Shown: positions 827 to 57,825, counted from the stretch's first letter. The stretch: 64,000 nt of DNA from Candidatus Saccharimonadales bacterium (GCA_041910055.1 JAYRRP010000004.1:154983-218982); one strand, 5' to 3'. Numbers and translations are program-made. Notes: a model not told the origin generated them from the letters alone.

Positions 827-847
827 ACCAACAAGGTACCCCGTTAT

Positions 848-1114: not shown

Positions 1115-1121
1115 CCGCCCA

Positions 1122-2612: not shown

Positions 2613-2730
2613 TCTCTTTGCTCCTCCAGATTGTAAGAAATTGTACCACATCAACTTTCAAAATAGGCAAAGCTCTTAGTTGAATATCAATAAGCTGCAA
2701 GAGACAGGTTGGTATTTACTCCCGGCAATT

Positions 2731-4941: not shown

Positions 4942-5050
4942 GCTAAGTATTGTAACGTGGGGAACCCTGTATAGAAATCATCTAACTCGAAAACAACGTT
5001 TATGCTTTCTCTCTACATTTTGTTAAAATAGTAGGAAATAACTCTTTATT

Positions 5051-6709: not shown

Positions 6710-6761
6710 TTTAAGTTAAAATTAAATCAAGCATAAGCACGTAACAAATAAAGGATAAAAA

Positions 6762-9263: not shown

Positions 9264-9433
9264 AAAGTATGAGAGATTATTCACTCTAACTTATCTCGGC
9301 TATTACTATAATAAATCTCGACGTCTTTTTTATTTAACTATACTCTGGTAGATTCACAAATGCTTTCCGCTTTATACTACCTGCCAGTGTATAATAGCCC
9401 CATCATGCATCTACCAAATTTGGAGTCCGGCCA

Positions 9434-10366
9434 GTGGTAACCAAAACCAAGGCCAGGCCCAGGTCACGCCACATCACTACATGGCCTTTTAATTTTGTAG
9501 CAATTATCTATAACCCTAACAGTACAGGATCCAGCAACTCCAAAGCTCACCGCTTGCGTGATAAGTTGGATAAAGCACTCCCGGCGCCCGTCACTCTTTA
9601 TCAAACAAAATATCCACAGCACGCCGAAGAATTAGCTTACCAGACAGCAAAAGAATTTACTAAGCCCCTTATCATATCGGTTAGCGGTGATGGGGGTTAT
9701 AACGAAGTAATCAACGGGGCAATGCACGCTCGATCTGAAGGTTCAACTCCCATCTGTGCGGTTATGCCTGCTGGCAATGCCAATGATCACCATCGAACTC
9801 TTAGTAAGAAACCACTAAGACGGGCGATCTTAAGTCAAGCGGTACATAATATTGACCTATTAAAAGTTATTGTTGCACCTCGTCAGGGAGCTAAGACTGT
9901 ACGCTATGCTCATTCTTATGTAGGTTTGGGGTTAACCGCAAACGTGTCTTCAGAACTCAACCGTCAAGCCCTAAACCCCCTTCGTGAAATAGCTATTATA
10001 CTGCGAGCTTTATACCATTTTCGACCAGTAAGCATCGAGGCAGAAGGCGCGAACTTGAAACTAGATAGTCTGATCTTTAGTAATATTAATCAAATGGCAA
10101 AAGTGTTAACGGTTTCTAAAAACGGACACCCCCAAGATGGAATTTTTGAGTTGTCGCTTTTCCCGAGCGATAACAAAGTGCGATTAGTGGGTCGTTTACT
10201 AAAAGCAGCCACAGTTGGATTAAAGCCTAGCCGGCAAACCAGTCACTATGAATTTGCAACCACTGACAAAACTGTTCTTCATCTTGATGGCGAAGTACTC
10301 AATATCGACAAGAATTGCAACGTCACCATCACCATCGACGAAAAAGCCTTGCCGACTATTTATTAA
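9434..10366 (+). CDS. diacylglycerol/lipid kinase family protein (DAGK catalytic domain, YegS-like)
   Basis: It carries VSGDGGYNEVINGA and PAGNANDH motifs typical of the DAGK_cat family. The start is GTG. Confidence 0.75.
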   Translation: MVTKTKARPRSRHITTWPFNFVAIIYNPNSTGSSNSKAHRLRDKLDKALPAPVTLYQTKYPQHAEELAYQTAKEFTKPLIISVSGDGGYNEVINGAMHARSEGSTPICAVMPAGNANDHHRTLSKKPLRRAILSQAVHNIDLLKVIVAPRQGAKTVRYAHSYVGLGLTANVSSELNRQALNPLREIAIILRALYHFRPVSIEAEGANLKLDSLIFSNINQMAKVLTVSKNGHPQDGIFELSLFPSDNKVRLVGRLLKAATVGLKPSRQTSHYEFATTDKTVLHLDGEVLNIDKNCNVTITIDEKALPTIY

Positions 10367-42038: not shown

Positions 42039-42674
42039 ATGATTCAAATAACTGCAAATGACGCTAACAAGGCTTGGGCCTTGACACTTCAGGCACTGCT
42101 AGAGAATGGTTCAGATACGGGTAACGAGAAGTATTCCAGAGACGAGACTACATTAATTGAAATTTTAGATCCGAAAGTCATTGAAGCCGATACGCGATTC
42201 CCTATGAGTCAAGCCGATTTAGATGTGATAAACAAGTATATCTATTCAGGAGAGGACGAGGAGGCTGTTGTCCATGATTGGACAAAACTCTATTATCACC
42301 GCGCATTTGATAACCCAAATTCACAAATAGAATTCCTCATAAATAAATTAAGTGAGGAGTGGCCCGCTGGAGAAGCTCAAATTTCCATGTGGGATAAGAA
42401 CATCGATCAAAAAAAGAAAACAGCCCCCTGTACTCAAATTATCTGGGCTAGAATTAAACATGGTAAGCTGGAACTCCATGTGCATACTAACTCATCAGAT
42501 GCTTACAAAAAGCTATTAATGAACATACTGGAGTTTATCTCGCTACAGCATTATATTGCCAGCAGAGCTAAAGTTCGTGTTGGTAAATATTATCATTTCC
42601 TTGATTCATGTCATTTACATACTGCAGATAAAAGTAAAGTCGACGAACTTTACCAGCAATTAAGAGACAAGTAA
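42039..42674 (+). CDS. minimal thymidylate-synthase-fold protein (211 aa)
   Basis: NSQIEFLINKL...ISMWD...TAPCTQIIWARIKHGKLELHVHTNSSDAYKKLLMNILEF...DSCHLH aligns by eye with ThyA DQI...SAWN...[39 protein letters not shown]...GDTHLY. The catalytic Cys and the Asn are retained. Confidence 0.65.
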   Translation: MIQITANDANKAWALTLQALLENGSDTGNEKYSRDETTLIEILDPKVIEADTRFPMSQADLDVINKYIYSGEDEEAVVHDWTKLYYHRAFDNPNSQIEFLINKLSEEWPAGEAQISMWDKNIDQKKKTAPCTQIIWARIKHGKLELHVHTNSSDAYKKLLMNILEFISLQHYIASRAKVRVGKYYHFLDSCHLHTADKSKVDELYQQLRDK

Positions 42675-42710
42675 TTTGCGTTAAAGCACGAAAAATGATA
42701 TAAATTACCT

Positions 42711-43922
42711 ATGGGCAGTGAGGTGACTTTACCTGGGATTGCTGAATACAGTCGTGGTGATGCTGCAGACCCAGAGATTAGCGATACATATCGTACGTCT
42801 TTAAGTCGCCTAGTGTTACTGCAAGAACTGGGCACTACTCATTTCCTCGGTGGTCCCCTTGACCTTGATGACAGTAAGTCTGTATGGCTAAGTCCTATTG
42901 AAGTGGACGACGGCGAGGTACATTCCTACTTCCAGTTAATCTACGTAAACACAACTCCGGAAGAATCATTAAATGATTCAAAAATTCCTGTATCACTCTT
43001 AGAAATTGACGAAGCAGGTTATAAACTAACTCCTCCTGAACATCCCGGGTATATGCAGTTAATGAATCAGTTCGTGGGTAAACGTAAACACATACTTATT
43101 CGTCACTGCAATATTGGCATGGCATATTATCCTCGAAGTATTTCACCTGGCCTGGAAGCGGTTAAGCACGATAATCATCTGGAAAGAATAATTGAAGTAA
43201 CGGGTCTTCATGAACCTGAAGTAAGTATTTCACTAGGTAAACCGTCCGAAAAAGATAGAGTACCGATTAATACTAAGGTTTTAGACACAGTTCATGCTCG
43301 ACGCTATCAGTTTGCAGATAGTGAAGTGCATTCCTATGGGCTGGTCTTGGGCAATGATCCATGGGAGTATTACGAACTATTCACACCACAACCAATCGAG
43401 GATATTGATAAAAAAGATGTGCTGGTTCGTATTGATTCAGGCTGTGACATTGGGCAAATTTTTGATGATCGGGGATGTGATTGTAGAGAGCAACTTCATA
43501 CTGCTTTGTCTGAAATTCAAGAGATTGGCAACGGTGTAGTCATTCATATACCATCACAAGATGGTCGGGGTTTTGGAGCAGCAACAAAGATGGAAACAGA
43601 AGGCTTGAAAAGAGGTATTGAAGTCGCAACTAATAAGGGTGATCTAAGAACCTACGATACAATTACAGCCGCTCGAATGCTGCTTGGTGATGAATTTGAT
43701 ATTAGAACGTACAGCGGCGCAGGGAAAATCCTTGGCATGCTAGGGGTTGAATCAGTACTACTCCAAACGGATAATCGTTTGAAAGCTGAAGGTGTTGCAG
43801 CCGGTGGAATAAAGGTAACTAGGAAACAAACTAACACGACAGCAGCCAGGGGTGCAACCCATCATATTGAAGCAAAACATAACCATAGGGACATTTATTA
43901 TGGCCACGACGAGGAAGAATAA
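42711..43922 (+). CDS. GTP cyclohydrolase II (RibA)-like domain with ~190-aa unassigned N-terminal extension
   Basis: VLVRIDSGCDIGQIFDDRGCDCREQL matches the RibA zinc triad C-x10-C-x-C. SQDGRGFG corresponds to QEGRGIG, and LLQTDN to LLTNNP. The N-terminal half resembles neither RibB nor anything else I recognise. Confidence 0.65.
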   Translation: MGSEVTLPGIAEYSRGDAADPEISDTYRTSLSRLVLLQELGTTHFLGGPLDLDDSKSVWLSPIEVDDGEVHSYFQLIYVNTTPEESLNDSKIPVSLLEIDEAGYKLTPPEHPGYMQLMNQFVGKRKHILIRHCNIGMAYYPRSISPGLEAVKHDNHLERIIEVTGLHEPEVSISLGKPSEKDRVPINTKVLDTVHARRYQFADSEVHSYGLVLGNDPWEYYELFTPQPIEDIDKKDVLVRIDSGCDIGQIFDDRGCDCREQLHTALSEIQEIGNGVVIHIPSQDGRGFGAATKMETEGLKRGIEVATNKGDLRTYDTITAARMLLGDEFDIRTYSGAGKILGMLGVESVLLQTDNRLKAEGVAAGGIKVTRKQTNTTAARGATHHIEAKHNHRDIYYGHDEEE

Positions 43923-43924
43923 GT

Positions 43925-44824
43925 ATGGCTCGCCACGATAGTCCTGGAATACTGTATCCAGATAGCTCTCCTATAATTGATAAGCTACGCCAAAGATGGA
44001 TACATATAGATTCCATGGCCGGTGTTGGTATTGACCCTGATATTATGAAAATCCCTACTGAGATATGGGAAGAAGTCGGTGGTCACTCAAATGTTGCTGA
44101 TGGCATCGAGTTATTCAATCAACGAGTCATTGATGCTACTGTTGAATATGCAGCAGACTTTAAGGTCAACTCAAACTTTTTCCAAGGAGAGATGGGGCGT
44201 CGTGCACTTGCGGGTACATTTGACTACTTAAGAGACCAGTATCCTGAAGTGGTTAGAGTCTGTGATGGAAAATTCGCTGATGTTGGCCATACCGCTGATA
44301 AAATTGCTGAGGAAATATTTGGCAATCTTGATGCAGATGCAGTTTTACTGAACCCATACATGGGTTTTGATGCTATTGAACCTTTTGTAAAGTGGCAAGA
44401 TAAACTAGTAGTTCTTTGCGTAAATACCTCAAACGAGACTGCTGAGCAAGTACAGAATTTGCGTCTAGAAGACGGAAACCCCCTCTGGAGGCAAATTCTT
44501 AATTTAAGCTTGAGTGACTGGAACTATAACCAAAATATCATTCCCGTTTTGAGCGCAACACATGTTGATAATCTTGAAGGTATACGTGATCAAATTGGCG
44601 ATACGCCCATACTACTTGCGGGCGTTGGTACTCAAGGCGGCAGCTTAAAAGAAAGTGTCCCAATAAGTCTTGACTCACAAGGATACGGACTAATGATAAG
44701 TGCTTCCCGTTCGATACTATATCCTGAGCGCAAAGAAGGTGAAGACTGGACCGATGCGTCTGCCCGAGTCGTTCGTGATCTTCGTGATTCAATCAATTAT
44801 TACAAGGCACTTACTAATGAGTGA
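43925..44824 (+). CDS. orotidine-5'-phosphate decarboxylase family protein (type 2 PyrF-like)
   Basis: Motifs GIDPD, FKVNSNFF, DGKFADVGHT (DxKxxDxxxT), ADAVLLNPYMGF, NTSN and AGVGTQGG run parallel to long-form PyrF. Confidence 0.65.
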   Translation: MARHDSPGILYPDSSPIIDKLRQRWIHIDSMAGVGIDPDIMKIPTEIWEEVGGHSNVADGIELFNQRVIDATVEYAADFKVNSNFFQGEMGRRALAGTFDYLRDQYPEVVRVCDGKFADVGHTADKIAEEIFGNLDADAVLLNPYMGFDAIEPFVKWQDKLVVLCVNTSNETAEQVQNLRLEDGNPLWRQILNLSLSDWNYNQNIIPVLSATHVDNLEGIRDQIGDTPILLAGVGTQGGSLKESVPISLDSQGYGLMISASRSILYPERKEGEDWTDASARVVRDLRDSINYYKALTNE

Positions 44825-45458
44825 GTTTAGAATCAGCCAAGTTCTACGCCAGAATGAGATCGAGCGCGCTATGGAACGTAATCTGAAGCGTGATCGATTA
44901 TTTGTACTTTTACTAGGTCCATCAGCGATAGGAAAATCAACCATAATCAATGAAATGAATACCCAATCTAGGGAACAAAAGTTTGAATATGTGAAGCCAA
45001 CCATGACACGTCCTAACCGTCTAGATGAAACCGATAAGCTCAGTGTTTCTAATGCAATATTTGACGAATTAGAGATCTCGGGTGAATTCGTGGTGGTCAA
45101 TAGGCTATATGGTGTACGCTACGGCACTCCTTTGAGAGGTGTGCTTGATCCTTTACAGAGAGGAAATACTCCAATTCTTGATTACCCACTTGAGACAGTT
45201 AATGCATTGGAACGGCCCGAATATGACATACTGAGTTTCTATGTTTACCCTCGGTCCATTGAAGAATGGCAATTACGTATAGAGCATAGTGGTAGAAATG
45301 TGGCCGACAGGTTAGAGGCTGGCAAGAGGGAACTTGGTTCTCTAGCCATAAATGGATTAATACACCCTCGTATCGATGTCAGTATCATTAACCCCGAAGG
45401 TGCAGCAAACCAAGCAGCCAAAAACATTCTTGAAACTATTGATCAGGTAACCAGCTAA
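44817..45458 (+). CDS. guanylate-kinase-like P-loop nucleoside monophosphate kinase
   Basis: Features are the P-loop LLGPSAIGKST, TMTRPNR (Gmk TTRxPR) and YGVRYGTP (Gmk YGT). ATG 44817 overlaps the end of the preceding gene by 8 nt. The upstream part of track ORF 44700 is an alternative frame of that gene. Confidence 0.65.
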   Translation: MSEFRISQVLRQNEIERAMERNLKRDRLFVLLLGPSAIGKSTIINEMNTQSREQKFEYVKPTMTRPNRLDETDKLSVSNAIFDELEISGEFVVVNRLYGVRYGTPLRGVLDPLQRGNTPILDYPLETVNALERPEYDILSFYVYPRSIEEWQLRIEHSGRNVADRLEAGKRELGSLAINGLIHPRIDVSIINPEGAANQAAKNILETIDQVTS

Positions 45459-46697: not shown

Positions 46698-47156
46698 TTA
46701 GTATTCTTCGATCACTATTTTCTTTTGCTGCATCAAAGTCTTAAAGGCATTTGGTTTTTGCATAAGTTCTTTCATATCCTTCGGCACCACTTGCCAGCTC
46801 AGGCCATATTTATCTTTACACCAGCCACATTGCTCGGATTCTGGAACGTATGAGAGTTTTTCCCAAAAGTAATCAATCTCTTGTTGATCTTTACAGGCAA
46901 TAGCGAAAGATATCGCTTCACTGAACTGAAACTCAGGCCCCGCGTTTATAGCCGTAAAATGTACTCCGTCAAGCTCAAATTCTATGGCCAGCACTTTTCC
47001 CGCTAAATCTTTCTGAAAATCAGCCAGGCCTTCTTCGGTACTTTTAGGATAGTATTCAGTGGACAATATTCTGCTGTTCGGAAAAACTGAGACGTAAAAG
47101 TCGACAGCTTCTTTGGCATTGCCATTAAACCATAAGTTCGGTGTGATTTTTTGCAT
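46698..47156 (-). CDS. VOC-superfamily protein (PhnB/YjdN-like, 3-demethylubiquinone-9 3-methyltransferase-domain family)
   Basis: MQKITPNLWFNGNAKEAVDFYVSVFPNS...CGWCKDKYGLSWQVVP is typical of this family. Confidence 0.75.
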   Translation of the reverse strand: MQKITPNLWFNGNAKEAVDFYVSVFPNSRILSTEYYPKSTEEGLADFQKDLAGKVLAIEFELDGVHFTAINAGPEFQFSEAISFAIACKDQQEIDYFWEKLSYVPESEQCGWCKDKYGLSWQVVPKDMKELMQKPNAFKTLMQQKKIVIEEY

Positions 47157-47341
47157 GGTTTCAGTATATCAAAATTAAAACACCTAGCTTGCGCTAAGTG
47201 CTTATGCTTGGCTCCGTCTAGTTGAAACATTGCGAACTAGTAGTGAGCAGTATGAGGATTATGAGTTTGATGACCTAGCTGCTACGGTTAGGCTGTATGA
47301 ACCAAGCCTAGCACTATCGTTTGGCGATGTGTAGGCAGCAA

Positions 47342-47794
47342 TTAGTCTTTAATAATTCCCGTCGCAATCAAAGTGTTACGAGTTGGCTCACTAAGACTTG
47401 CGTCTTTTAGCTCCTCAATCGAAAACCAGCGTGGCTGATACCAGTCGTCCTCAGTTTTCAGCACAACCTCATCAGCATTTTGGTCAAGGTCAATACGGTA
47501 ATTATAAAAGTCCATTTTTACAAATACTCGCTCGCCAGTATCTCGTAATGTTTTCTCGTGTTCGCCTGATGATTGGTATAGTTGCTTTACAGCAGCCTTG
47601 TTTATATCAATACCTGTTTCCTCAAGCATTTCACGGTGTAGTGCAATCTCTTTGGTTTCGCCCTCGTCAACACCGCCGCCTGGCACTACAAACGAACCCT
47701 CATATACTCCGCCTTTACGGTTCTTGCCCAGTAGTAACTTGCCGTCCTTTGAAAAAATAAAGCCGCCAACAATGTCTCGGTGTATGGTTCTCAT
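47342..47794 (-). CDS. Nudix hydrolase
   Basis: Nudix box GGGVDEGETKEIALHREMLEETGI. Confidence 0.85.
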   Translation of the reverse strand: MRTIHRDIVGGFIFSKDGKLLLGKNRKGGVYEGSFVVPGGGVDEGETKEIALHREMLEETGIDINKAAVKQLYQSSGEHEKTLRDTGERVFVKMDFYNYRIDLDQNADEVVLKTEDDWYQPRWFSIEELKDASLSEPTRNTLIATGIIKD

Positions 47795-47920
47795 AATCTA
47801 ATAATAACCTATCATTGCTTGTCAACAAGGCGGGGGTAGTCCCCTTTACCTCTCACAAAATACACTCCGCCGTATGAATGCCGAATTTTTGGGGGTAGAA
47901 TGACCAAGCGTTTTTTGGTG

Positions 47921-48148
47921 CTAAATATCCTTGAACAAATCGGCAACATTGACCTTGAGGCTATTTGCGATTTTATTCAAAGTACCGAGCCTAGCCCAGC
48001 GTTTGCCAGTTTCTATATAGGCAATAGCCACTACGCTCATACCTATGTTCTCAGCTAATTCCTGTTGCGTAACGCCCTTGCTCTTACGCACCTCTGCCAC
48101 TCGCTTACCAAAGGCTTTCATCAATTTCTGTTCTGGTGCATTTGTCAT
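47921..48148 (-). CDS. XRE-family helix-turn-helix regulator
   Basis: FGKRVAEVRKSKGVTQQELAENIGMSVVAIAYIETGKR is a classic HTH_3 sequence. Confidence 0.85.
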   Translation of the reverse strand: MTNAPEQKLMKAFGKRVAEVRKSKGVTQQELAENIGMSVVAIAYIETGKRWARLGTLNKIANSLKVNVADLFKDI

Positions 48149-48261
48149 ACACCTAGCGTAAAAATTATAAACAGATAGTTACATAAACTAACTGTTTATT
48201 TTTGTTACTCAATGTTATATATTTACAGGGACAACTTAAACAAGGAGTATAGGTAAGGAAA

Positions 48262-48825
48262 ATGGCAGAAAAGAAACGAAATTGGTTTGCTCGCCACAAG
48301 GTGCTAACCGTAATAGGGGTTATCGTTTTGCTGGCAATTATCGGCGGTGCTGCTGGCGGCGGTAACAAATCTACAACTAACTCAAGCGGTAGCAAAGACA
48401 CAAAAACCCAGGCTAAAGCTGAGACGGCTAAAGTCGGACAAGCCGCCAACGACGGTAAGTTCGAGTTTACAGTTACCAGTGTTGAGTGCGGCAAAGCCTC
48501 TGTTGGTGCTAACCAGTACCTAACCAAGACGGCTCAAGGGCAATACTGCCTACTTAACGTATCGGTCAAGAACATTGGCGACCAGGCTCAAAGTCTCGTT
48601 TCTAGCAACCAATATCTGCTTAATGCCAGTGGTCAAAAGTATTCGGCTGATGATACAGCTACACTTTACAATGCCCCGAACGGCACAAGCTGGTATAACG
48701 ATATAAACCCAGGTAACAGCGTAACTGGTGCTATCGTCTTTGATATACCAAAAGACCAGACACCTGCAACGGCTGAACTGCACGACAGTGCCTTTTCAGG
48801 CGGCGTAAAAGTCAACTTACAGTAA
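48262..48825 (+). CDS. DUF4352-type membrane-anchored extracellular protein
   Basis: It has an N-terminal TM helix and a Ser/Thr/Lys linker. The Ig-like domain carries FEFTVTSVEC...QYCLLNVSVKNIG...GAIVFDIP. Confidence 0.7.
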   Translation: MAEKKRNWFARHKVLTVIGVIVLLAIIGGAAGGGNKSTTNSSGSKDTKTQAKAETAKVGQAANDGKFEFTVTSVECGKASVGANQYLTKTAQGQYCLLNVSVKNIGDQAQSLVSSNQYLLNASGQKYSADDTATLYNAPNGTSWYNDINPGNSVTGAIVFDIPKDQTPATAELHDSAFSGGVKVNLQ

Positions 48826-48841
48826 AGTAAACTGACGCGAT

Positions 48842-48870
48842 AAAAAAGGGGCTATCACAGCCTCTTTTTT
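48842..48870. terminator. bidirectional rho-independent terminator
   Basis: AAAAAAGGGGCTatcacAGCCTCTTTTTT lies between convergent genes. Confidence 0.7.
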
Positions 48871-49195
48871 ATGCCCACTTGCGATTACGGTTTTTCGCCT
48901 CTTTATCGGCAACCGCCTGCCACATATCTACACCTGTCAAGCTGGCAAGTCCAAGCAAAACTATCTGCACATCAGCTAATTCCTCTGCAAGCTCCGTTTG
49001 CTTAGTCGTGTCTGTGAACTTTAAGCCAATAGTCTTACGAACGGCTTTAGCCAACTCGCCAACTTCCTCCATCAACATAACCAACTTTTTACTTGCGTCC
49101 TCGGTATTAAAGCCACGTTCAATGTTCATCTGCCAAACATATTCTTGTAGCTTTTTAAGTGTAATATCGTCTGCTATTGGGTTTTTATCATTCAT
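48869..49195 (-). CDS. MazG-like nucleotide pyrophosphohydrolase
   Basis: [12 protein letters not shown] and [15 protein letters not shown] are MazG EExxE/D motifs. The start at 49195 overlaps the upstream gene's stop. Confidence 0.8.
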
Positions 49196-49754
49196 TGTCG
49201 TCCTCAACTTTCTGTATGCTGGCAATATCGTCGGGCAGTAGTCTAACGTGTTCGTTACGATAAACAATTCCAGCCGCCCCAGTGTTTACCCACCTCAATA
49301 CAGCCTCATCGTCATCAAAGTAATCAGTTAAGTGCTTTTGTCCAGATTTGAGTGTTATTAAGTATCGCTTTGGTTTTTCAATAACATCTTTCAGCTTATC
49401 CAGTATGTCTTGCGTAAATGGTTCATCAAGGTCGCCACTGTCAACCCACTCGTAATACTCTAATTCGCACTGGTTATCGTCAAGTGGCTTGAGCGTATAT
49501 TTAACGTGATAATTGTCGTCTTTTTTGCTCATAACGAACATAATGCCAGGCTCATAAGCGGTTATTTCGTATTCGTTCCACTTACCGTCGCTGCCTTGAT
49601 TTTTATAGATTGTGCCAAGTTTTGTCGGGCTTTCGTTAGTCTGCTCTTTAACAATGCCATCAATCCACTTTGGCGTGTTTTCGGGATTGAGGCTAAAATC
49701 AAAAACCTCGTGTGCTGCTCGATTGATTTTAATGGTTAGCTTTACGTCTTTCAT
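49188..49754 (-). CDS. SRPBCC-superfamily (polyketide-cyclase/START-like) protein with ~50-aa C-terminal extension
   Basis: The N-terminal ~135 aa has the pattern [21 protein letters not shown]...YEITAYEP...VKYTLKP. Assignment by eye. Confidence 0.5.
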
Positions 49755-49759
49755 AGTGC

Positions 49760-50152
49760 TTACATACTCGCCAGGACGATTGCCTCTTTAATCTCTTTTT
49801 CAATGCTGTCGGCATATTGCTCAAGCTCATCGGCAGTGACCCAGGCAAACTCTTGGTGTTCGTCGCTCAAGACAACCTGATTAGATTTTGTTTGGCAGAA
49901 AAAGAACAGTGCTACGATATGCTTTAGCTCGCCCTCTGGCTTAGCAAACCACTCATCAACGTGTATTACTTTGCCAATTTCAAGGTCGGTAATTCCAGTT
50001 TCCTCTTTAGTCTCACGCCGTAAGCCGTCCTCTAGCTTTTCGCCTTTTTCAAGCCGACCACCAACAGCTTGCCAACGTTCGCCCTCTCGGACAATTAAGA
50101 ACTTGCCGTCTTGATTTTGGATTACTGCTTTTACAGCTACTTGCGTGTCCAT
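49760..50152 (-). CDS. Nudix hydrolase
   Basis: Nudix box [24 protein letters not shown]. Confidence 0.85.
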
Positions 50153-50796
50153 TATGTTAGCTCCCCTATACTTGATATGCTTTTGGCATTTTCTGCCAAG
50201 AATTGCTCTCTGGTTACTAAACCAGTTTCAACACCAAGAAAACTAAATCCAGCACCGATAGCTGCTTTCATATCGTGCAAACCGTCGCCGATATAAACAA
50301 CCTCGTCTGGGCGTATTTGTTGCTCACTAAGCCACTCTAAGGCAGGGTCAAAAACTCTTGGGTCGGGTTTGTGAAATGGCGTATCGTCAGCGGTTTGTGT
50401 GTAATCTAGTAAGTCTCTCGGCACTTTATGTAACGTCAGGTCGTGTTCAAAGCTGAAACGGCTTGTCGCAGTGATAATACCTATGAGCTTTCCAGCAGCC
50501 TTGATATGACGCAGCGTTGGTATAGTTGCAGTAAACAGTTCCTTTGGAAAGCCTTCGTGAGTAGCAGTATTGTGTGCCATTGCTTGTTCGACATCATCTG
50601 TTCCATATAGTAAACAGACAAGCTCCCTCAATGGCTTGCCCCAATGCTCTTTTATTTCATCGTCAGTTAATTCTTTGCCGTAAAAAGTACGTGCTACGTG
50701 TTTGTGCTGTTCCCATTTAGTTCCGATTGTGCCGACCAGAGTATCATCGTGGTCGAACAAAACGACTTTTATATTTTCTGCAATATGCTCACTCAT
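50152..50796 (-). CDS. HAD-superfamily phosphatase
   Basis: Motif I is VLFDHDDTLV and motif IV is YIGDGLHDMKAA. I chose the start at 50796 (AAAGGA SD); the longer track ORF overlaps the upstream gene. Confidence 0.8.
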   Translation of the reverse strand: MSEHIAENIKVVLFDHDDTLVGTIGTKWEQHKHVARTFYGKELTDDEIKEHWGKPLRELVCLLYGTDDVEQAMAHNTATHEGFPKELFTATIPTLRHIKAAGKLIGIITATSRFSFEHDLTLHKVPRDLLDYTQTADDTPFHKPDPRVFDPALEWLSEQQIRPDEVVYIGDGLHDMKAAIGAGFSFLGVETGLVTREQFLAENAKSISSIGELT

Positions 50797-50812
50797 CAAT
50801 AATCCTTTCAGG

Positions 50813-52210
50813 TCACCCTTTGTCATAACCCTTGAACCACCCTTTTTTCTCTGCCTGTTCATAGGGCAGCATTGTCCTACCAGCATAGGTAATGCTGTCG
50901 GCTTTGCCGTTGCTGCCAAAACTAAATACTACTGTTTCGCCTGGCGAGCTGTAATTGTTAGCCTTTTCAATTTTAAGCGTACTGTCATCTATAACAGTTA
51001 ATTCCTCTGCGTCCTCAAACTCCGTCCACCAAAGTGGGTCCACTGCAAATAACTTTTTACCAACGACCACAATATCAGTTGGTCCCCAAGTAGAGTAAAA
51101 TCGTCCTGCAAATCTGTTATGGTCAGCAACTTTGGACTTAATATGGTCAGTGTCTTGCTGGAAAGTGTCAACTATATTGATTAAGCTACTACATACCTTT
51201 TTTGCTGGACCGTTATAAGCGTTTGTCAAAACAGTAACTACCAGTTTTCTTTTAGCGTCAAATTGCGTGTTAGTGATAAAGCCTGGAAACCCGCCGCTAT
51301 GACCGTAAATGGTCCAGCCTTTCTTTTGGTAATTAACAAAGCCTAAACCGTAGCGTTCATTTTTGTCTGCTTTCCAATAGCCGTGTTGCATTTGCCGCTT
51401 TGCCTTATCACTAAGCAAGGTATCGTTGCCCAAAAAATGTGCAGCGAAATAGCTACATACGTCCTCAGCATTGCTGTAAAAGCCAGTAGCTGACGATAAT
51501 GCCCGTGTGTCTATGTGGTCAAATTGCCTACGGCTCTCGTTAAACAGCTCGATACCGTAGCCATTAGCCAGCTTATCCTTTGCCTTACTATCCAAATCGG
51601 GACCAGTTGAGCTTAGATTAAGTCGCTCAACTATATTCTTAGTCACATATTCACGGTAAGGCATACCGCTTACAGCCTCGACAACAAAGCCTAGATACCC
51701 GAAAGCAAAGTTAGAGTATTTAAACTGTTCATCAGAGGCGTATATTAGCTTGCTTTGTGCAATAAACTCTTTAAGCTCGCTCTCGTCAGGGAATGGACGT
51801 AAAAGCTGCCAAAAATCAGAGTTTGTACCATCACGAATTACGCCAGCCGTGTGGTTAAGTAGTTGTCGAACGGTTACTTGGCTTATTCGTTCGTCCTTTG
51901 ATGATTTAAACCATTCAACGTGCTGACTGACTGTATCATCTAGGCTTAACTTGCCACTCTCAACCAACTGCATAATCGCAGTTGAGGTAAAGGTTTTTGA
52001 GTGCGAGGCAATTCTAAAAATATGGTCTTTGGTCAGCTTGGTCTTGGTTTTTAGGTCAGCGTGACCAAAGGGGCGTGAGTAGATTAGCTTATCGCCGTGT
52101 TGTATAGCTACCTGAATTGCAGGAATACGGGAATTATCAAAGTTAAGTTCAAGCCAGGTATCAATATAATTTACGGCTGCTTGCAATTTATCGGGGTTAA
52201 GGCTGTCCAT
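50813..52210 (-). CDS. beta-lactamase-fold serine hydrolase (class C / PBP4*-like family)
   Basis: It has the SxxK motif (ASHSKTFT) and the YSN motif (FKYSNFAF), and is 465 aa with a C-terminal beta-rich extension. Confidence 0.8.
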   Translation of the reverse strand: MDSLNPDKLQAAVNYIDTWLELNFDNSRIPAIQVAIQHGDKLIYSRPFGHADLKTKTKLTKDHIFRIASHSKTFTSTAIMQLVESGKLSLDDTVSQHVEWFKSSKDERISQVTVRQLLNHTAGVIRDGTNSDFWQLLRPFPDESELKEFIAQSKLIYASDEQFKYSNFAFGYLGFVVEAVSGMPYREYVTKNIVERLNLSSTGPDLDSKAKDKLANGYGIELFNESRRQFDHIDTRALSSATGFYSNAEDVCSYFAAHFLGNDTLLSDKAKRQMQHGYWKADKNERYGLGFVNYQKKGWTIYGHSGGFPGFITNTQFDAKRKLVVTVLTNAYNGPAKKVCSSLINIVDTFQQDTDHIKSKVADHNRFAGRFYSTWGPTDIVVVGKKLFAVDPLWWTEFEDAEELTVIDDSTLKIEKANNYSSPGETVVFSFGSNGKADSITYAGRTMLPYEQAEKKGWFKGYDKG

Positions 52211-52215
52211 AACTG

Positions 52216-52398
52216 TTATTTTTGCTCCATTAACTTTAGTAAATCCGCCTTTTTGTAGCGTCGCAATTTGCGTTCGCCAATGCGGATAGCTTTAAGTGTG
52301 CCGTTCTTGTCCCAATTTCTGAGCGTGTTCGGGTGCACTTGCAGTAGCTCGCAAGCCTGTTTCAGTGTTAGTAATTCTGGCAAATCTTTCTGTGACAT
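52216..52398 (-). CDS. excisionase-family / MerR-type HTH DNA-binding protein (60 aa)
   Basis: LLTLKQACELLQVHPNTLRNWDKNGTLKAIRIGERKLRRYKKADL matches the excisionase-type HTH_17 pattern. Confidence 0.8.
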   Translation of the reverse strand: MSQKDLPELLTLKQACELLQVHPNTLRNWDKNGTLKAIRIGERKLRRYKKADLLKLMEQK

Positions 52399-52469
52399 AT
52401 AACCTCACAATTGATACTATTATCATACAAGAGTGTAAGCAACTGCGGTAGTGCGGTTTTGGTAAAGAT

Positions 52470-53675
52470 GTGATGAAAAAAGACGACAAACAGCCAGATA
52501 AGCCTAAGAAAAAGCCGCTGAAAAAAGCGGTTAGTAAATCGTCGGCAAACAAAAAGCCTAAACAGCAAGACGATAAGCCGATTGAGATTATCCTACCTGT
52601 TAAACCCAGACACACCCTGAACCTTGACGCTAAGAAATATAGAGACAGCCTCTCAGTTGACGAGTGGCTAGAATTATCCGAAAAAGACCCCAACCTACTT
52701 ACCCCTACTCAAGCAAGGCAGCTTGCAGAGGCAAACAAGCAAGCTACTGAAATAGCTAAGCGTATAACAGAGATGTACGAGTTTAAGGGTATTGCTGCTA
52801 TGTTCAAGACCATAGACACACTACCGATTGCTCGTGTTATGCAGCAAGCCCAAGAAACGGCTCTGGTCCTAAGCAAGTTCCAAAACAATCTCATATTGCC
52901 AACCATACCGACCCAGCAGCTTGTAACCTTTCAGCAAAACCTAGCCATTACAACAGGTGTCATCAATCAGTCATTTATCGCTGCTATCAATGCAGCTAAT
53001 ATAACTCGCAACCTATTTGCTGATATGCAGCGTGTCAGCGACATAATTATCAAGGGTCTAAGCATTGACCTTACCTCGCTTAGTAAAAGCCTGTCACGCT
53101 TTACGGCAATAGAAACGATTGACCTTGACGTAATTGAGGTTATTGACCGTGACGGCAACATAGCGATTGTCAGCGATACGAGCCAGACAAAGCGAATTGA
53201 TGATGACTACCAGTATGTCAGCACGGCAAAGTTCGACCTGTTGCTTACTGAAATACGGTCAAGCCGCCAAGAGTTAGCAGAATTAAAACAACTGGTTAAG
53301 GGTCAGCTACCGAGCGGGATTACAAAAATTACTTACGCTGACATAAAATTTATGATTGAAAGCTCAAAGCTGATACTAAAAGGACACGAGATTGACGTGC
53401 GTCGTAGTTCCAAGCAAGCCAAATTCTGTGACTTTTTCTTTAGCTCGATAGATAACTTCGTTAAAAAGTGGGACGTTTCACATCTTATGGAACGAGTTTT
53501 TATAATGCACGTTGGCACTGACGGTAATGAGGATAGCTTTAATAACATCATCAAAGGCTATGTAACCGAGCTTAACAAAAAGATAGCAATCGCCACAAAA
53601 GGTCAGCTAATAGACTTTTTCATTCTTTTGAATTATGAGGTTTACATAAACCCAAAATATATTTCTCATCTGTAA
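52470..53675 (+). CDS. hypothetical protein (401 aa) with Lys-rich N-terminus
   Basis: A long ORF divergent from the HTH gene. No domain recognised. Confidence 0.55.
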   Translation: MMKKDDKQPDKPKKKPLKKAVSKSSANKKPKQQDDKPIEIILPVKPRHTLNLDAKKYRDSLSVDEWLELSEKDPNLLTPTQARQLAEANKQATEIAKRITEMYEFKGIAAMFKTIDTLPIARVMQQAQETALVLSKFQNNLILPTIPTQQLVTFQQNLAITTGVINQSFIAAINAANITRNLFADMQRVSDIIIKGLSIDLTSLSKSLSRFTAIETIDLDVIEVIDRDGNIAIVSDTSQTKRIDDDYQYVSTAKFDLLLTEIRSSRQELAELKQLVKGQLPSGITKITYADIKFMIESSKLILKGHEIDVRRSSKQAKFCDFFFSSIDNFVKKWDVSHLMERVFIMHVGTDGNEDSFNNIIKGYVTELNKKIAIATKGQLIDFFILLNYEVYINPKYISHL

Positions 53676-53734
53676 AAATGTAGTTATCCACCAGTTTAAA
53701 CTCGGTTAAATACCTGGTCTGTCGTAATGGCTAT

Positions 53735-53926
53735 ATGCAGCAGCAAAGTAGCCAACAACCCAAAATCGTCACTCTGCAAGACTTTATTGCCGAGCTAGGT
53801 CGAGACGACGTTGCAACCGCCAATTTGGTCGGTTACTTTGACGTGCTGATTGAAATGGACCTTGAACTTAAAGAGCAAGAAAGGATTGATGAAAATGAGC
53901 GACGAAAGCAAACAAGCGATAGCTGA
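53735..53926 (+). CDS. small hypothetical protein (63 aa)
   Basis: An ORF in the element's plus-strand module, assigned on coding potential only. Confidence 0.35.
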   Translation: MQQQSSQQPKIVTLQDFIAELGRDDVATANLVGYFDVLIEMDLELKEQERIDENERRKQTSDS

Positions 53927-54197
53927 CACGGTTTTAGCCTGGTGCAACGAGTGCCGACTACACGCCGCAATGCTGATAATTTGGAACGCTGAATTAAGCG
54001 AGATTGAGCAGATTGTTAAAGAGGCAGAGGGTTACTTGCCAGCCATTATCGGTAGCCAGGCAACCTCTAACCATATAAGGTCGCTAATCTGCGACCTTGA
54101 CCATAAGCAAATGAGAGCAATACGGGCTTATATCAGCCTACTGCTTGAGGGACCGTGTAAAACGCCAGAATGCCAAGAGGATTGCAATGTTAATTAA
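53895..54197 (+). CDS. hypothetical protein (100 aa, Cys-containing)
   Basis: An AAGGAT SD lies 8 nt upstream of ATG 53895. No homology recognised. Confidence 0.4.
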   Translation: MSDESKQAIADTVLAWCNECRLHAAMLIIWNAELSEIEQIVKEAEGYLPAIIGSQATSNHIRSLICDLDHKQMRAIRAYISLLLEGPCKTPECQEDCNVN

Positions 54198-54531
54198 CGA
54201 GGTAAACATAGTGCCAGTAAAGCCAAATAACGGCTTGGTAGCGTTTGCTAGTGTGGTCCTTGATGAAAGCCTGTATCTCGGCTCTATTGGCGTTCATAGC
54301 CGCCTAGACGGCTCATATAGGATTACCTACCCGACTAAAAAGCTCGGCAGTAAGGAACTGAACCTATACCACCCAATTAACCGAGACTTTGGCAAGCAGA
54401 TTGAACAGGCGGTTGTTGCCAAGTGCGAGCAACTTTTTAAAGGACGTGATGACTATGATAGACACAATAAAGCTAGTGATAAAAATGGACAAGCCACTAC
54501 ACTCACGAGCCAACTTTCAACCGACGCTTGA
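54187..54531 (+). CDS. SpoVG-like protein
   Basis: VNIVPVKPNNGLVAFASVVLDESLYLGSIGVHSRLDGSYRITYPTKK...YHPINRDFGKQIEQAVV parallels the SpoVG fold signature. Confidence 0.65.
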   Translation: MLINEVNIVPVKPNNGLVAFASVVLDESLYLGSIGVHSRLDGSYRITYPTKKLGSKELNLYHPINRDFGKQIEQAVVAKCEQLFKGRDDYDRHNKASDKNGQATTLTSQLSTDA

Positions 54532-55576
54532 TAGCATAAACCCTGACTACTTTGGCTATTTCAAGGCAAATGCTAATCCGTCAGCGGCTACCAAAAAGCT
54601 CGGCAAGTATCAGCCACGTCTTACCTATACTCAACGACCCAGAGGTTATAAGCGAGCTGCCTATGAGCTTGCGATTGAGCTTTCATTGCCAAAGATAGCG
54701 TTCGGTAATAACTTTGATGAGCTAACTGACGCTGATTACGGCTTAGTCGTTCGGCAGCTACAAGATACGCTAAGAGAAATGGGCGTTTGGCTGTTCACGA
54801 AACAGATTGAAAATGCAGAGGTACGAGCGTTGCATTACAGTAAGAACTTTGTGTTTAAGGATTACACGTCCTGCTCGGCTGTGCTGCAAATGCTACGCAC
54901 CGCCGACATTAGCAAGCGTTATGACGTGCAAGACACCAACTTTCGCAATGGCGGCTATGTTCTACACGTACACACAAACTCGCTCGACATTGCGATTTAC
55001 GATAAGCTGGCAGACTTACGACAAGCCAAAACAAGCGAAAAACGCTCGCAAGAGAAAGACAACTTTGTGCAGCTTGACTTGCTTGACCAGTTGGCACGAC
55101 AGCAACCGACTGCGGTAATGCGGTATGAGGTAAGGCTTAACGGTAAACGAAAGACCACTGACGCTTTGGCAGCCATTGGCTTTGCTAAGCCGCTGACTTT
55201 TCAAAATGTTTTCTCTACCGAACTTTCCAAAGCCTTGCTGCAAGACCATTGGCAGAACTTTTTTAGCACCCTGCCAAAGTTGGCACTAGACACTGACGAC
55301 CCAGACAAGCTGCTCGCTAACATATTGCAGTCAGCAGACGTAAAAGGTCCGTCGCAAGCTGCCGCTAGGCTCGGTATGATGTTGCTACTTACAAAGAGCG
55401 AGCAACGCCACGTTAGGGCAATGTTTGAGGACCGCTTTGGCAAACACGCTTGGTCACGTCTCAAGCCGCTTACTAAACCGCCACACAAGGTCCAATACAA
55501 AACTATACTAGGCATTAACCAAATGCTTGAGCAGTTTGAACCAACCAAAATGGACCAGATTAAAGGTCATCTATAA
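54449..55576 (+). CDS. rolling-circle replication initiator (phage/plasmid gene II/X or Rep_trans-like)
   Basis: The N-terminus is MIDTIKL, LPKIAFGNNF is present, and the IAIYDK ... MRYEVRL pattern is typical of this Rep group. The start is 54449 or 54455. Confidence 0.55.
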   Translation: MTMIDTIKLVIKMDKPLHSRANFQPTLDSINPDYFGYFKANANPSAATKKLGKYQPRLTYTQRPRGYKRAAYELAIELSLPKIAFGNNFDELTDADYGLVVRQLQDTLREMGVWLFTKQIENAEVRALHYSKNFVFKDYTSCSAVLQMLRTADISKRYDVQDTNFRNGGYVLHVHTNSLDIAIYDKLADLRQAKTSEKRSQEKDNFVQLDLLDQLARQQPTAVMRYEVRLNGKRKTTDALAAIGFAKPLTFQNVFSTELSKALLQDHWQNFFSTLPKLALDTDDPDKLLANILQSADVKGPSQAAARLGMMLLLTKSEQRHVRAMFEDRFGKHAWSRLKPLTKPPHKVQYKTILGINQMLEQFEPTKMDQIKGHL

Positions 55577-55627
55577 TTGTTACTTATTGTTATATAATGG
55601 TATATACTACCAGAGAAAGGATTTACT

Positions 55628-57148
55628 ATGAAAACTAAGGCATTTTTGATAGCAAGGGTCTCTGACCCAGAGCAAAGACAAGCGTTACCTGCACAGGTTT
55701 TACGCCTCGAAAAATACGGTAAAGACAAAGATTACGACTATGAGCTGTTTGAGTTTGATGAAAGTGCATACAAGGACAACCGCAAGACATTTGGCAACAT
55801 TGTAAAAAGTATCCAGGCCTACCCTAACGAGTGTATTGTTGTCTTTGACAAAATTGACCGCTACACGAGGGACAGTTCAGCCGATGAGGTAAAAATACTC
55901 AATAAGCTCCGAGAGGACGGTAAAATCGAGATACATTTTCCGTCAGACAATTTATGCGTCACTAAAAACTCTGGTGCTCCTGACCTATTTAGGCTTGGTA
56001 TTGGCGTGGCACTTGCTCGCTACTACTCGGACAGCATTAGGGATAATGTTAAGCGACGGTTTGAGCAAAAGCTCAATGACGGCGAGTGGCCTGGTAAAGC
56101 ACCGATTGGCTTTGTGAACCATAGAATTAGCGACAAAGAAACCACTGTGTTGATAGACCAAGAGCGAGCTGGCTACATCAAAAAAGCCTTTGAGCTGCGA
56201 CTTGTTGGCACTCCGTTCAGAGGTATAGCTGCACAACTTAAAGCCGACGGCTTGCGTAACAATACGGCTAAACGCACGGCAATTGGTCAGAGTTATGTCG
56301 AGCAAATCCTGAAAAACCCGTTTTATTACGGTGTTATGCGGTATAACGGCAAGCTATACCCTCACAAATACGAGCCAATTATCAGTCGTAAGATGTTTGA
56401 TAAGGTCCAGGCTGTTAATGAGCAGCGTGGCACAAACCGAACAAAAAAGCAGTCCATAGACTACACCTTTAACGGTCTGCTCAAATGCGGTAGCTGCGGT
56501 TGTAGCGTATCGTCTTACACTGCTAAGGGTAATGTATATATGCAGTGCAGTAAGGGCAAAGGTCCGTGCAAGCAGATACACATCAAAGAAAAGGACCTTG
56601 TGCCACAGGTTGCCGAGCTTGTCGGCAAACTAGAAATGAACGAGGACATAATAAACTATGTGATTGACGAGCTGCGTAAGCACCACGATAACCAACAGCT
56701 TTACTATGCCAATGCCATTGAGCAAACCCGTTCAGAATACGACACGATACAGAAAAAGCTCGGTATTTTGTATGAGGATAGGCTCGACGGGCGTATTACT
56801 CTCAATGACTATGACGAATATGTTAAGGACCTAAAGGCTCGCCAAGAGCAGTTAGACGACCAGCTCGTTAATTTGACCCATAATGATAAAAGTTTTCTAT
56901 TGACCAGTTCGTATCTGTTAGAGATAGCTACAAAAGCCCCTAAACTGTTCCAAAGTTCGAAAGCGGCTCTAAAATCCAAGCTTTTACGCTTTCTACTTTC
57001 GAACCTCGTAATTCAGGACAAAAAGCTCGTTTTCAATCTAAAAGCACCCTTTGATGTAATCTCAGAGTGCTCTCAAAATCAAACTTGGCTCCGGGGAAAG
57101 GATTCGAACCTTCGACCTAGTGGTTACACTGATTCACCATTTTCATGA
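55628..57148 (+). CDS. large serine recombinase
   Basis: Features are the catalytic region LIARVSDPEQ, DRYTRD, the recombinase domain (GKAPIGF, KNPFYYG), a Zn-ribbon (CGSCGCSVS...CSKGKGPC) and a coiled-coil tail. The last ~21 codons (LRGKDSNLRPSGY...) are the antisense reading of the tRNA-Asn 3' exon. Confidence 0.9.
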   Translation: MKTKAFLIARVSDPEQRQALPAQVLRLEKYGKDKDYDYELFEFDESAYKDNRKTFGNIVKSIQAYPNECIVVFDKIDRYTRDSSADEVKILNKLREDGKIEIHFPSDNLCVTKNSGAPDLFRLGIGVALARYYSDSIRDNVKRRFEQKLNDGEWPGKAPIGFVNHRISDKETTVLIDQERAGYIKKAFELRLVGTPFRGIAAQLKADGLRNNTAKRTAIGQSYVEQILKNPFYYGVMRYNGKLYPHKYEPIISRKMFDKVQAVNEQRGTNRTKKQSIDYTFNGLLKCGSCGCSVSSYTAKGNVYMQCSKGKGPCKQIHIKEKDLVPQVAELVGKLEMNEDIINYVIDELRKHHDNQQLYYANAIEQTRSEYDTIQKKLGILYEDRLDGRITLNDYDEYVKDLKARQEQLDDQLVNLTHNDKSFLLTSSYLLEIATKAPKLFQSSKAALKSKLLRFLLSNLVIQDKKLVFNLKAPFDVISECSQNQTWLRGKDSNLRPSGYTDSPFS

Positions 57149-57670
57149 TGCGTGGACTATCTCATCATCCGACAATTGCCGGATGCAGGGCGCTATTTGA
57201 ACGATTATTGTTAGGCTCACGTTCTAGTCTCTGAACCTTCCAGACTCCTTTATCCTAAGTCTGGCTTGGCTGCGGATTACCATATCTTACGACGTAGGTT
57301 TCCCGCAATTCACCCTGTTTTCACTACTTGATTACCCAAGTAGGCTGCTTGTAGCCTGCATGAATTTCTCTATGACAATTTGCACATAGCAAGACACATT
57401 TATCTGCCTCGGCTTTATTCTTTTCCCACGAGCGAGTCAATCCGCTTGATGAGATACCAAAGTCTTTAGTTGTTGCGTCTTTGTGATGCAAATCTAGTGC
57501 ATCAATGCATAAGTTATATCCGCATAGTTCACAGCTGCCACCCTTGTAGGCAACAATCATCTGACGCATTTTCTTGCGGCGTTTCGCAACTGCCATTTTT
57601 AGATATTCAGCACGATCGGCATACGTACGGTTATCTGGCATACATATTATTGTATACCACGTGTCACCGA
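57127..57670 (-). ncRNA. group I intron (IC3-like core) in the tRNA-Asn anticodon loop
   Basis: The classical conserved elements are on the minus strand: P AATTGCGGGAAACC (57297-57310), Q AATCCGCAGCC (57268-57278), R GGTTCAGAGACTAGAAC (57221-57237) and S GAGATAGTCCAC (57152-57163). P/Q pair as UGCGG/CCGCA and R/S as GACUA/UAGUC. Splice junctions are ambiguous by 1 nt. Confidence 0.8.
57324..57641 (-). CDS. HNH homing endonuclease encoded inside the group I intron
   Basis: CELCGYN...LDLHHKD...LLCANCHREIH is an HNH/Zn-finger signature. The ORF sits between the 5' splice site and the P3-P9 ribozyme core. Confidence 0.8.
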   Translation of the reverse strand: MPDNRTYADRAEYLKMAVAKRRKKMRQMIVAYKGGSCELCGYNLCIDALDLHHKDATTKDFGISSSGLTRSWEKNKAEADKCVLLCANCHREIHAGYKQPTWVIK

Positions 57671-57825
57671 ACAGCCACCCGCTCTACCGCTGAGCTACCC
57701 CGGAATATTAATATTACTTTACTCCGTGAGAAACGTTGAACCCCTCAGGAATAACAGCTGTATTCTAGCGGCTTCATTATCATATGTAAATGACAGAAGG
57801 GAAAGAATAACAAATAGATTCTTTA

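Follow-up and report, generated by a model that had tools for sequence, protein, structure and literature searches.

Why would a small mobile element carry a stack of hydrolases for nucleotides and small molecules behind an excisionase-like gene? The question is raised by a 64,000-nucleotide (nt) stretch of DNA from a Candidatus Saccharimonadales bacterium (the window; all coordinates are positions in it), in which an initial annotation had described six closely spaced minus-strand genes as cargo of such an element and had proposed that they serve counter-defence or resistance. On balance, we favour the reading that this array forms the principal cargo operon of an integrative rolling-circle episome of 9,877 bp and that it encodes co-expressed house-cleaning and other accessory enzymes, with no co-evolved pathway among them. 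Most likely, the hydrolases are a mixed set of accessory genes and not a purpose-built system, because close relatives of the element carry quite different genes at the same position.

The array and the element that carries it

Open reading frame (ORF) calls and domain profile searches recovered six tightly packed ORFs running from 52398 to 48869 on the minus strand. The genes, their order and all of the named domains were as initially described.

52216-52398, minus strand: HTH_17/excisionase-family DNA-binding protein, operon gene 1, part of the backbone (PF12728, E 2e-13; TIGR01764, 37.5 bits against a cut-off of 28.8)
50813-52210, minus strand: beta-lactamase-fold (S12/COG1680) serine hydrolase, here called Bla, 465 amino acids (aa) (PF00144, E 1e-62)
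50152-50826, minus strand: HAD-IA phosphatase, 224 aa (HAD_2, E 3e-24)
49760-50152, minus strand: Nudix hydrolase 1 (Nudix1), MutT/NudI-like, 130 aa (PF00293, E 5e-21)
49188-49754, minus strand: SRPBCC/START-like (Polyketide_cyc2) predicted ligand-binding protein, 188 aa, with a ~60-aa C-terminal extension (PF10604, E 4e-9)
48869-49195, minus strand: MazG-like all-alpha nucleoside triphosphate (NTP) pyrophosphohydrolase, 108 aa (PF03819, E 2e-7, 31.8 bits against a cut-off of 22)
48850-48862, minus strand: terminator-like GC-rich hairpin and T-run, directly after the MazG stop codon, closing the cargo operon

With gene starts taken from an independent gene caller on an identical Logan contig (L001), the successive junctions, read along the operon, are a gap of 5 nt, overlaps of 14 nt and 1 nt, a gap of 5 nt and an overlap of 8 nt. 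Together with the domains, these junctions confirm that the cargo genes form a single co-directional array, translationally coupled and headed by an excisionase-like HTH gene. As read from the translations, the catalytic motifs are intact in every array enzyme: SHSK, YSN and HSG in the serine hydrolase, DHDDT and GDGLHD in the HAD protein, and a complete Nudix box in Nudix1, as also in a second Nudix hydrolase further along the element (Nudix2). The motifs EEVGE and EELAD of the MazG-like protein follow the EExxE...ExxD/E metal-binding pattern and place it among the predicted MazG-type pyrophosphohydrolases. The four genes from HAD to MazG, at 43.4% GC, do not stand out from the element (43.8%) or from the remainder of the window (45.1%).

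The view that the array lies on a mobile element also held, since attL, attR and attP could be mapped and sister elements assemble as circles. The element spans 47208-57093 and is integrated in the 3' end of a tRNA-Asn(GUU) gene. A search for direct repeats of attachment sites within the window alone recovered none; the core is merely 9 bp and was mapped through circular sister contigs. A multiple alignment of attL and attR of the window, attP of sister contigs L120 and L121, and attL and attR of the integrated sister L119 shows the arms exchanged around a 9-bp core, TTGGCTCCG, which in the window lies at both ends:

47208-47216, no strand: attL core TTGGCTCCG, left end of the element
57085-57093, no strand: attR core TTGGCTCCG, made up of the last 8 nt of tRNA-Asn and 1 further nt

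These two positions give the element its length of 9,877 bp. The circular contig L121 aligns without a break to window positions 53100-57093 and then jumps to 47207-47327, and attP sits at the 3' end of the recombinase gene. Two Logan contigs found through homologs of the replication protein (Rep), L120 (8.7 kb) and L123 (10.9 kb), have 30-nt overlaps between their ends. Such overlaps match circles assembled from k=31 unitigs, and these contigs are therefore circular sister elements. An element of this family thus exists as a free circle, as shown by the sister contigs and not by the window copy. Four family members, those of the window, L038, L119 and L124, occupy tRNA-Asn(GUU).

Exchange of cargo among sister elements

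Conservation of the gene order in other elements had been put forward as a check on the initial proposals. The order is not conserved. The nearest sister element, L126, 92% identical at the nucleotide level, has a DUF218 gene in place of HAD-Nudix1-SRPBCC-MazG, and seven further relatives carry unrelated genes behind the same HTH_17. L126 aligns at 92% to window positions 52493-50822 and at 91% to 48870-48178, and between these two segments it has 695 bp encoding DUF218. The alignment defines the exchanged block of the window:

48870-50822, minus strand: swapped block HAD-Nudix1-SRPBCC-MazG, 1,951 bp

The breakpoints are clean, one at the end of the Bla gene (50822) and the other immediately before the terminator (48870), and the Bla proteins of L126 and the window are 93% identical.

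An HTH_17 gene stands at the same position in 9 of the 10 sister elements examined, and the contig of L126 ends within HTH_17. The genes that follow it are these:

L007 and L126: Bla-DUF218
L127: Bla-glutamine amidotransferase-like (GATase)
L008: Bla-ACT-PfkB-SRPBCC
L120: SDR-SDR-GDSL lipase-methyltransferase
L119: DUF3850 and two unknowns
L122/L123: ApeA-HEPN toxin
L124: small HAD-like protein and DHH phosphoesterase
L125: DUF3800
L038 (the closest genome, same tRNA-Asn): SDR-ANT(2'')-like-PfkB

Bla is paired with HTH_17 in L007, L008 and L127, and it is also present on L126, where the upstream region aligned. A second cargo slot, from the XRE regulator gene to the attP arm, varies too: it is occupied by Nudix2 in the window, by a gene for a 287-aa product in L119 and by a P-type ATPase along with DUF305 and DUF3105 in L123, and is empty in L120 and L121. 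The content of the operon turns over faster than the backbone.

Two of the sister elements have features of their own. In the 10.9-kb circle of L122/L123, an ApeA_NTD1-HEPN_Apea defence-type toxin is the sole cargo of the first slot (5668-7083 and 8867-10282, respectively). In L127, positions 2-330 hold the 3' end of a recombinase gene, reversed and joined directly to the region upstream of HTH_17, a junction that could mark a form of the element derived by deletion or rearrangement, or could have arisen in the assembly.

Homologs of the array proteins outside this family were found in varied company. Bla homologs at 68-71% identity lie in unrelated chromosomal neighbourhoods, and none of 29 metagenomic loci with SRPBCC homologs has a HAD, Nudix1, MazG or Bla homolog nearby. 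In 17 of these loci, the 119 neighbours are heterogeneous (alpha/beta hydrolases, SDRs, recombinases, GDSL lipases, APH, VanW, ArsP), and the 25 families with the most matching members in this set do not include NUDIX, HAD or MazG. Clustering at 90% identity left MazG as a singleton, and the clusters of HTH_17, DUF4352 and Nudix2 have 16-27 members. In two further loci (L006, 6255-10693; L009, 6790-10570), Bla-fold/SRPBCC homologs lie within 1.5-2 kb of unrelated large serine recombinases that abut tRNA-Pro and tRNA-Gly. Islands built from a serine integrase and a tRNA gene may be a common vehicle for Bla-fold/SRPBCC accessory genes in Patescibacteria.

Backbone, chromosomal flanks and nearest described relatives

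Beyond the array, the element and its target comprise the following features:

47342-47794, minus strand: Nudix2, 150 aa, in the second cargo slot between the attP arm and XRE (PF00293, E 6e-16)
47921-48148, minus strand: XRE-family regulator, backbone (HTH_3, E 7e-14), kept in L119, L120, L121 and L122/L123
48262-48825, plus strand: DUF4352 protein with an N-terminal membrane segment, backbone, convergent with the cargo operon (PF11611, E 6e-30; phrog_806), kept in L119, L122/L123 and L126
52473-53675, plus strand: 400-aa backbone protein of no known family, divergent from the cargo operon (45 homologs)
54187-54531, plus strand: SpoVG-like protein, backbone (PF04026, E 6e-9), kept in all sister elements
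54455-55576, plus strand: gene-II (G2P)-like HUH rolling-circle Rep, 373 aa (family-level PF05144)
55628-57148, plus strand: large serine recombinase (integrase), its 3' end running into the tRNA gene (Resolvase, Recombinase and Zn_ribbon_recom; phrog_95, E 2e-69)
57086-57703, minus strand: target tRNA-Asn(GUU), split by a group I intron with an HNH ORF (RF00028, 88 bits; exon alignment to L038)

Small ORFs lie between the genes for the 400-aa and SpoVG-like proteins. Rep has 198 homologs. Among 26 members that were aligned, PF05144 (the N-terminal domain of the gene II replication protein of filamentous phages) was recovered in 15, and the alignment shows an HxH motif and, downstream of it, a Tyr, both with little or no variation. 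These family matches and residues identify the 373-aa protein as an HUH rolling-circle initiator, an assignment that rests on the family, the window's own copy scoring below the Pfam threshold. A Rep profile found no match among PDB sequences, and no Rep relatives were present in PLSDB, INPHARED or IMG/VR, where the recombinase had one distant match in IMG/VR. A prophage or inovirus was considered and rejected: the element has no capsid, Zot-like ATPase or terminase gene, and its PHROGs matches are the integrase, the excisionase-type HTH and the DUF4352 family of unknown function.

The 400-aa protein has a lysine-rich N-terminus, no Walker A motif and no Pfam or PHROG match. Many of its 45 homologs come from contigs of 8.4-11.6 kb, which matches the circular elements in size. 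Its AlphaFold2 model is poor (mean confidence, pLDDT, 47.8), and Foldseek returned nothing for it at E<=0.001. Only residues ~290-398 are confidently modelled, and these may weakly resemble an OmpR-type winged-helix domain (Foldseek E 0.07).

The target gene is itself interrupted. A group I intron of ~540 nt lies in the anticodon loop of tRNA-Asn(GUU) (RF00028 match at 57134-57401, 88 bits) and carries an HNH endonuclease ORF (57324-57641; phrog_2255, E 3e-28); because of the intron, ARAGORN misses the gene. The exons align exactly to the intron-less tRNA-Asn of L038, and the integrase ORF reads antisense through the tRNA 3' exon into the intron.

The left boundary corrects one part of the initial gene list, which had counted a second Nudix, an XRE regulator and a VOC/PhnB-like protein as further genes of the element. 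Nudix2 and XRE are inside, but the PhnB/VOC gene (46698-47156) lies ~50 bp beyond the left end and is chromosomal. A terminator-like hairpin at 47203-47178 stands just outside attL, followed by PhnB, as expected downstream of an uninterrupted tRNA-Asn. A 15.6-kb island reaching from tRNA-Ser to tRNA-Asn, suggested by the ends of contig L001 at both tRNAs, was ruled out by the attL mapping, which also makes the ThyA-like, GCH-II-like, OMPdecase-like and GK-like genes chromosomal. Scanning genome contigs with the flanking Nramp gene yielded L038 as the closest genome (93%) and no empty site, and scanning them with the Bla protein gave no match. Assignment to the Saccharimonadales (Patescibacteria) comes from the names of homologs and from the flanking ExoD, methyltransferase and two Nramp transporter genes.

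Outside the element, beside tRNA-Ser(GCU), a plus-strand chromosomal cluster at 42039-45458 encodes a short thymidylate-synthase-like protein of 211 aa, GTP-cyclohydrolase-II-like and OMP-decarboxylase-like proteins of 403 and 299 aa, respectively, and a P-loop protein resembling guanylate kinase. Saccharimonadales are generally regarded as lacking de novo nucleotide synthesis, and the cluster is an odd nucleotide-metabolism set for a member of this group.

Among described elements, the actinomycete integrative and conjugative element (AICE) comes closest. AICEs such as pSAM2, SLP1 and pMEA300 are ~10-20 kb long, reside in tRNA genes with attP immediately downstream of int, and have free circular replicating forms; they encode an excisionase, an XRE/GntR regulator and, in most cases, a Nudix hydrolase, often adjoining the XRE gene (PMC2440964). 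Immunity to transfer is conferred in pSAM2 by its Nudix hydrolase, Pif, and modules of Nudix with XRE are found repeatedly among AICEs (PMC2440964). Three pyrophosphohydrolases and a phosphatase on one mobile element had initially been called unusual; since most AICEs carry a Nudix gene, often beside XRE, the presence of one on a small integrative element is not unusual (PMC2440964).

The window element resembles AICEs in its site-specific integration into a tRNA gene with attP just downstream of int, in having its own replication initiator (rolling-circle in pSAM2) and a free circle (here the 8.7-kb and 10.9-kb sister circles), and in its excisionase-type HTH, XRE/GntR-type regulator, Nudix hydrolase and variable accessory genes. 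By contrast, its integrase is a large serine recombinase where AICEs have a tyrosine integrase, Pfam and PHROGs searches found no FtsK/SpoIIIE-type Tra and no spd in any ORF of the element, and its host is a member of the Saccharimonadales and not an actinomycete. These three differences exclude it from the AICEs proper. A gene-II/PF05144-like Rep in place of RepSA would be a further difference. The element is an AICE-like integrative rolling-circle episome, serine-integrase based and apparently non-conjugative. Because the known hosts of cultivated Saccharibacteria are actinobacteria, the architectural resemblance to actinomycete AICEs is suggestive.

A literature search turned up no account of such elements from Saccharibacteria or Patescibacteria; its coverage was incomplete, which makes it weak evidence for novelty. 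In a survey of Patescibacteria type IV secretion systems, relaxases and recognisable mobile elements were scarce (PMC12102498). The HUH Rep might be the missing relaxase for the relaxase-less chromosomal type IV secretion systems of Patescibacteria. The combination of a serine integrase, a gene-II-like rolling-circle Rep and targeting of tRNA-Asn would characterise the family, for which at least 198 Rep homologs are known. It is possible, and we suggest it only tentatively, that these represent a widespread and apparently undescribed family of small AICE-like episomes in Saccharibacteria and other Patescibacteria, with the HTH_17-led operon as a dedicated slot for quickly changing cargo, and that the four-gene block is a newly captured, portable module that sanitises nucleotides or degrades signals.

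Enzyme relatives and competing explanations

The closest solved structures of MazG and Nudix1 are house-cleaning enzymes (2q5z/2q73, DCTPP1, NudI and MTH1). For MazG, the best PDB matches are 2q5z/2q73 (E 9e-5, 26 bits), followed by MazZ and DCTPP1. We take 2q5z/2q73 to be iMazG, the integron-cassette MazG of Vibrio rotiferianus DAT722. The iMazG enzyme is a pyrophosphohydrolase of deoxynucleoside triphosphates (dNTPs) encoded by an integron cassette and has been proposed to act in house-cleaning (PMC3856429). Both proteins are single-domain MazGs of ~100-115 aa with EExxE and ExxD motifs and are exchangeable cargo of a mobile platform, but the similarity is weak and the window copy has no integron, attC or IntI around it. 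Among 762 representative relatives of the window MazG, only one reached E<=1e-30. An integron cassette array was also considered for the operon as a whole and rejected: there is no tyrosine integrase and no attC-like repeat family at the junctions, and the overlapping or abutting genes leave no room for attC.

Nudix1 is closest to the solved structures of NudI and MTH1, and Nudix2 to a Bdellovibrio pyrophosphohydrolase and NudI. Their 39% identity to each other is confined to the Nudix box, and they are otherwise unrelated. Both share with MutT, NudI and MTH1 a complete Nudix box and a single domain of ~130-150 aa, and these proteins provide their best PDB and NCBIfam matches; the scores nevertheless fall short of the equivalog cut-offs (44-45 bits against 95 for NudI; 33-39 bits against 98-148 for MutT). 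In tblastn searches of plasmids with Nudix1 and Nudix2, the matches had just 30-38% identity and revealed no link to the Nudix proteins of AICEs. The best NCBIfam match of the HAD protein is PpaX (58 bits against a cut-off of 218), and its closest PDB entry is 3d6j, an uncharacterised structural-genomics protein. Bla is closest to alkaline D-peptidase (4y7p), the R61 DD-peptidase and Pab87 (2qmi), with matches over 305 aa to 4y7p, 9s7k and 2qmi. It has the SxxK, YxN and HxG motifs of these S12/COG1680 hydrolases, and its ~130-aa C-terminal extension is comparable in size to that of Pab87-sized proteins. As a class C beta-lactamase it scores 89.9 bits against the NCBIfam bla_class_C cut-off of 415, and it has no N-terminal signal-like segment. 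The SRPBCC protein matched no PDB sequence.

A working model can be assembled from these resemblances and from the structure of the element. As the att mapping shows, the large serine recombinase inserts the element into the last 8 nt of tRNA-Asn(GUU), and the gene-II-like HUH Rep would replicate the excised circle. The conserved HTH_17 gene heads the minus-strand transcription unit, with the exchangeable genes downstream of it; in the window copy, these are the D-peptidase-like serine hydrolase common to the nearest relatives and the 1.95-kb block that replaces DUF218. We infer that each hydrolase is an accessory enzyme in its own right and that all are expressed together from the promoter region of HTH_17. 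Nudix and MazG would cleave non-canonical or excess (deoxy)nucleoside triphosphates to the monophosphates and pyrophosphate, and the HAD protein may remove the resulting phosphate or pyrophosphate. Such nucleotide house-cleaning could be useful both to a nucleotide-importing epibiont and to an element that replicates via single-stranded DNA. By analogy with Pif of pSAM2, Nudix2, downstream of XRE, may serve the maintenance of the element.

Several points weigh against reading the array as a mere assortment. The four-gene block could still be a functional module from an unsampled donor, because its genes were swapped as a unit and are translationally coupled. The 90% clusters of Nudix1 and SRPBCC both list a 2,113-bp Logan contig, a hint that these two genes move as a pair. 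With three of its seven cargo genes of the NTP-pyrophosphohydrolase type, the element exceeds the background: it has 2 strict Nudix boxes in 9.9 kb, compared with 1 in the remaining 54 kb of the window and 2 in 1.23 Mb of related loci. Genomic context was sampled only through Bla, SRPBCC, Rep and Nramp as anchors. Finally, all NCBIfam scores of the enzymes lie far below the equivalog cut-offs, so that no substrate can be assigned from sequence.

What else might hold these genes on the element? The initial suggestion of a detoxification or resistance island, in which the serine hydrolase, the SRPBCC protein and the other hydrolases would inactivate or sequester antibiotics or toxic metabolites of an actinobacterial host, finds indirect support in sister elements but none in the genes of the window copy. 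L038 carries an ANT(2'')-like gene (PF10706, E 5e-27; region 270-3437) and L123 a P-type ATPase with DUF305 and DUF3105, and in L125 DUF3800 is followed by ABC-F and an APH-family kinase (4824-8426) adjoining an element remnant with an unmapped left boundary. The neighbours of SRPBCC homologs include APH, VanW, ArsP and RrnaAD, and the Bla-HTH_17 pair is the most conserved cargo in the sub-lineage. However, Bla is without a signal peptide, is nearest to D-/DD-peptidases and reaches 90 bits against the class C cut-off of 415; Nudix, MazG and HAD are not resistance folds, and the PhnB/VOC protein cited in support is chromosomal. We regard this explanation as unlikely. Quite unlikely, too, is that the Nudix proteins, perhaps with MazG, hydrolyse a signal in the manner of Pif and thereby restrain excision, replication or transfer in cells that carry the element. 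The AICE precedent speaks for such a role: a Nudix is present in most AICEs, the immunity due to Pif depends on its Nudix motif, and modules of Nudix and XRE, with or without a phosphohydrolase, are recurrent (PMC2440964). In the window, Nudix2 directly follows XRE in the same orientation, and one of the 16 members of its 90% cluster is listed on a 17,670-bp JGI contig, a length that recurs among the entries for the Bla, DUF4352 and p401 clusters. Yet the circles of L120 and L121 are complete but for Nudix2, no specific similarity of either Nudix to those of plasmids or AICEs could be detected (30-38% identity), and no conjugation gene is present in the family that would have to be guarded against redundancy.

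Counter-defence, the other initial proposal, we consider improbable. It holds that Nudix, MazG and HAD degrade immune signals (cyclic oligonucleotides, cADPR-like molecules, cCMP/cUMP) or restore or deplete nucleotide pools, to the benefit of the element or its host cell, and it could draw on the presence of three pyrophosphohydrolase-type genes and a phosphatase on one small element. In PADLOC, both Nudix proteins match the candidate family PDC-S07 (E 4e-14 and 6e-11) and the HTH matches mad1, all as single generic matches, and no other array protein matched. The ApeA-HEPN defence-type toxin in the same slot of one sister element suggests that the slot is used for conflict genes. But the PDC-S07 matches reflect generic Nudix similarity and provide no positive evidence for counter-defence, the gene set is not kept even at 92% nucleotide identity, and the closest solved relatives are house-cleaning enzymes. 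We therefore prefer to read the array as co-expressed but independent house-cleaning and accessory genes, and the array itself is probably ordinary accessory cargo.

To our knowledge, few mobile elements and genetic tools are known for Saccharibacteria. The element described here provides a natural replicon-plus-integration system for these bacteria at base-pair resolution, with attP, an attB site within tRNA-Asn, a serine integrase and a Rep of the rolling-circle type, and it could become an integration or shuttle vector. It also illustrates the exchange of accessory genes among epibionts with reduced genomes, the cargo across relatives including resistance-like and defence-like genes and genes for nucleotide house-cleaning.

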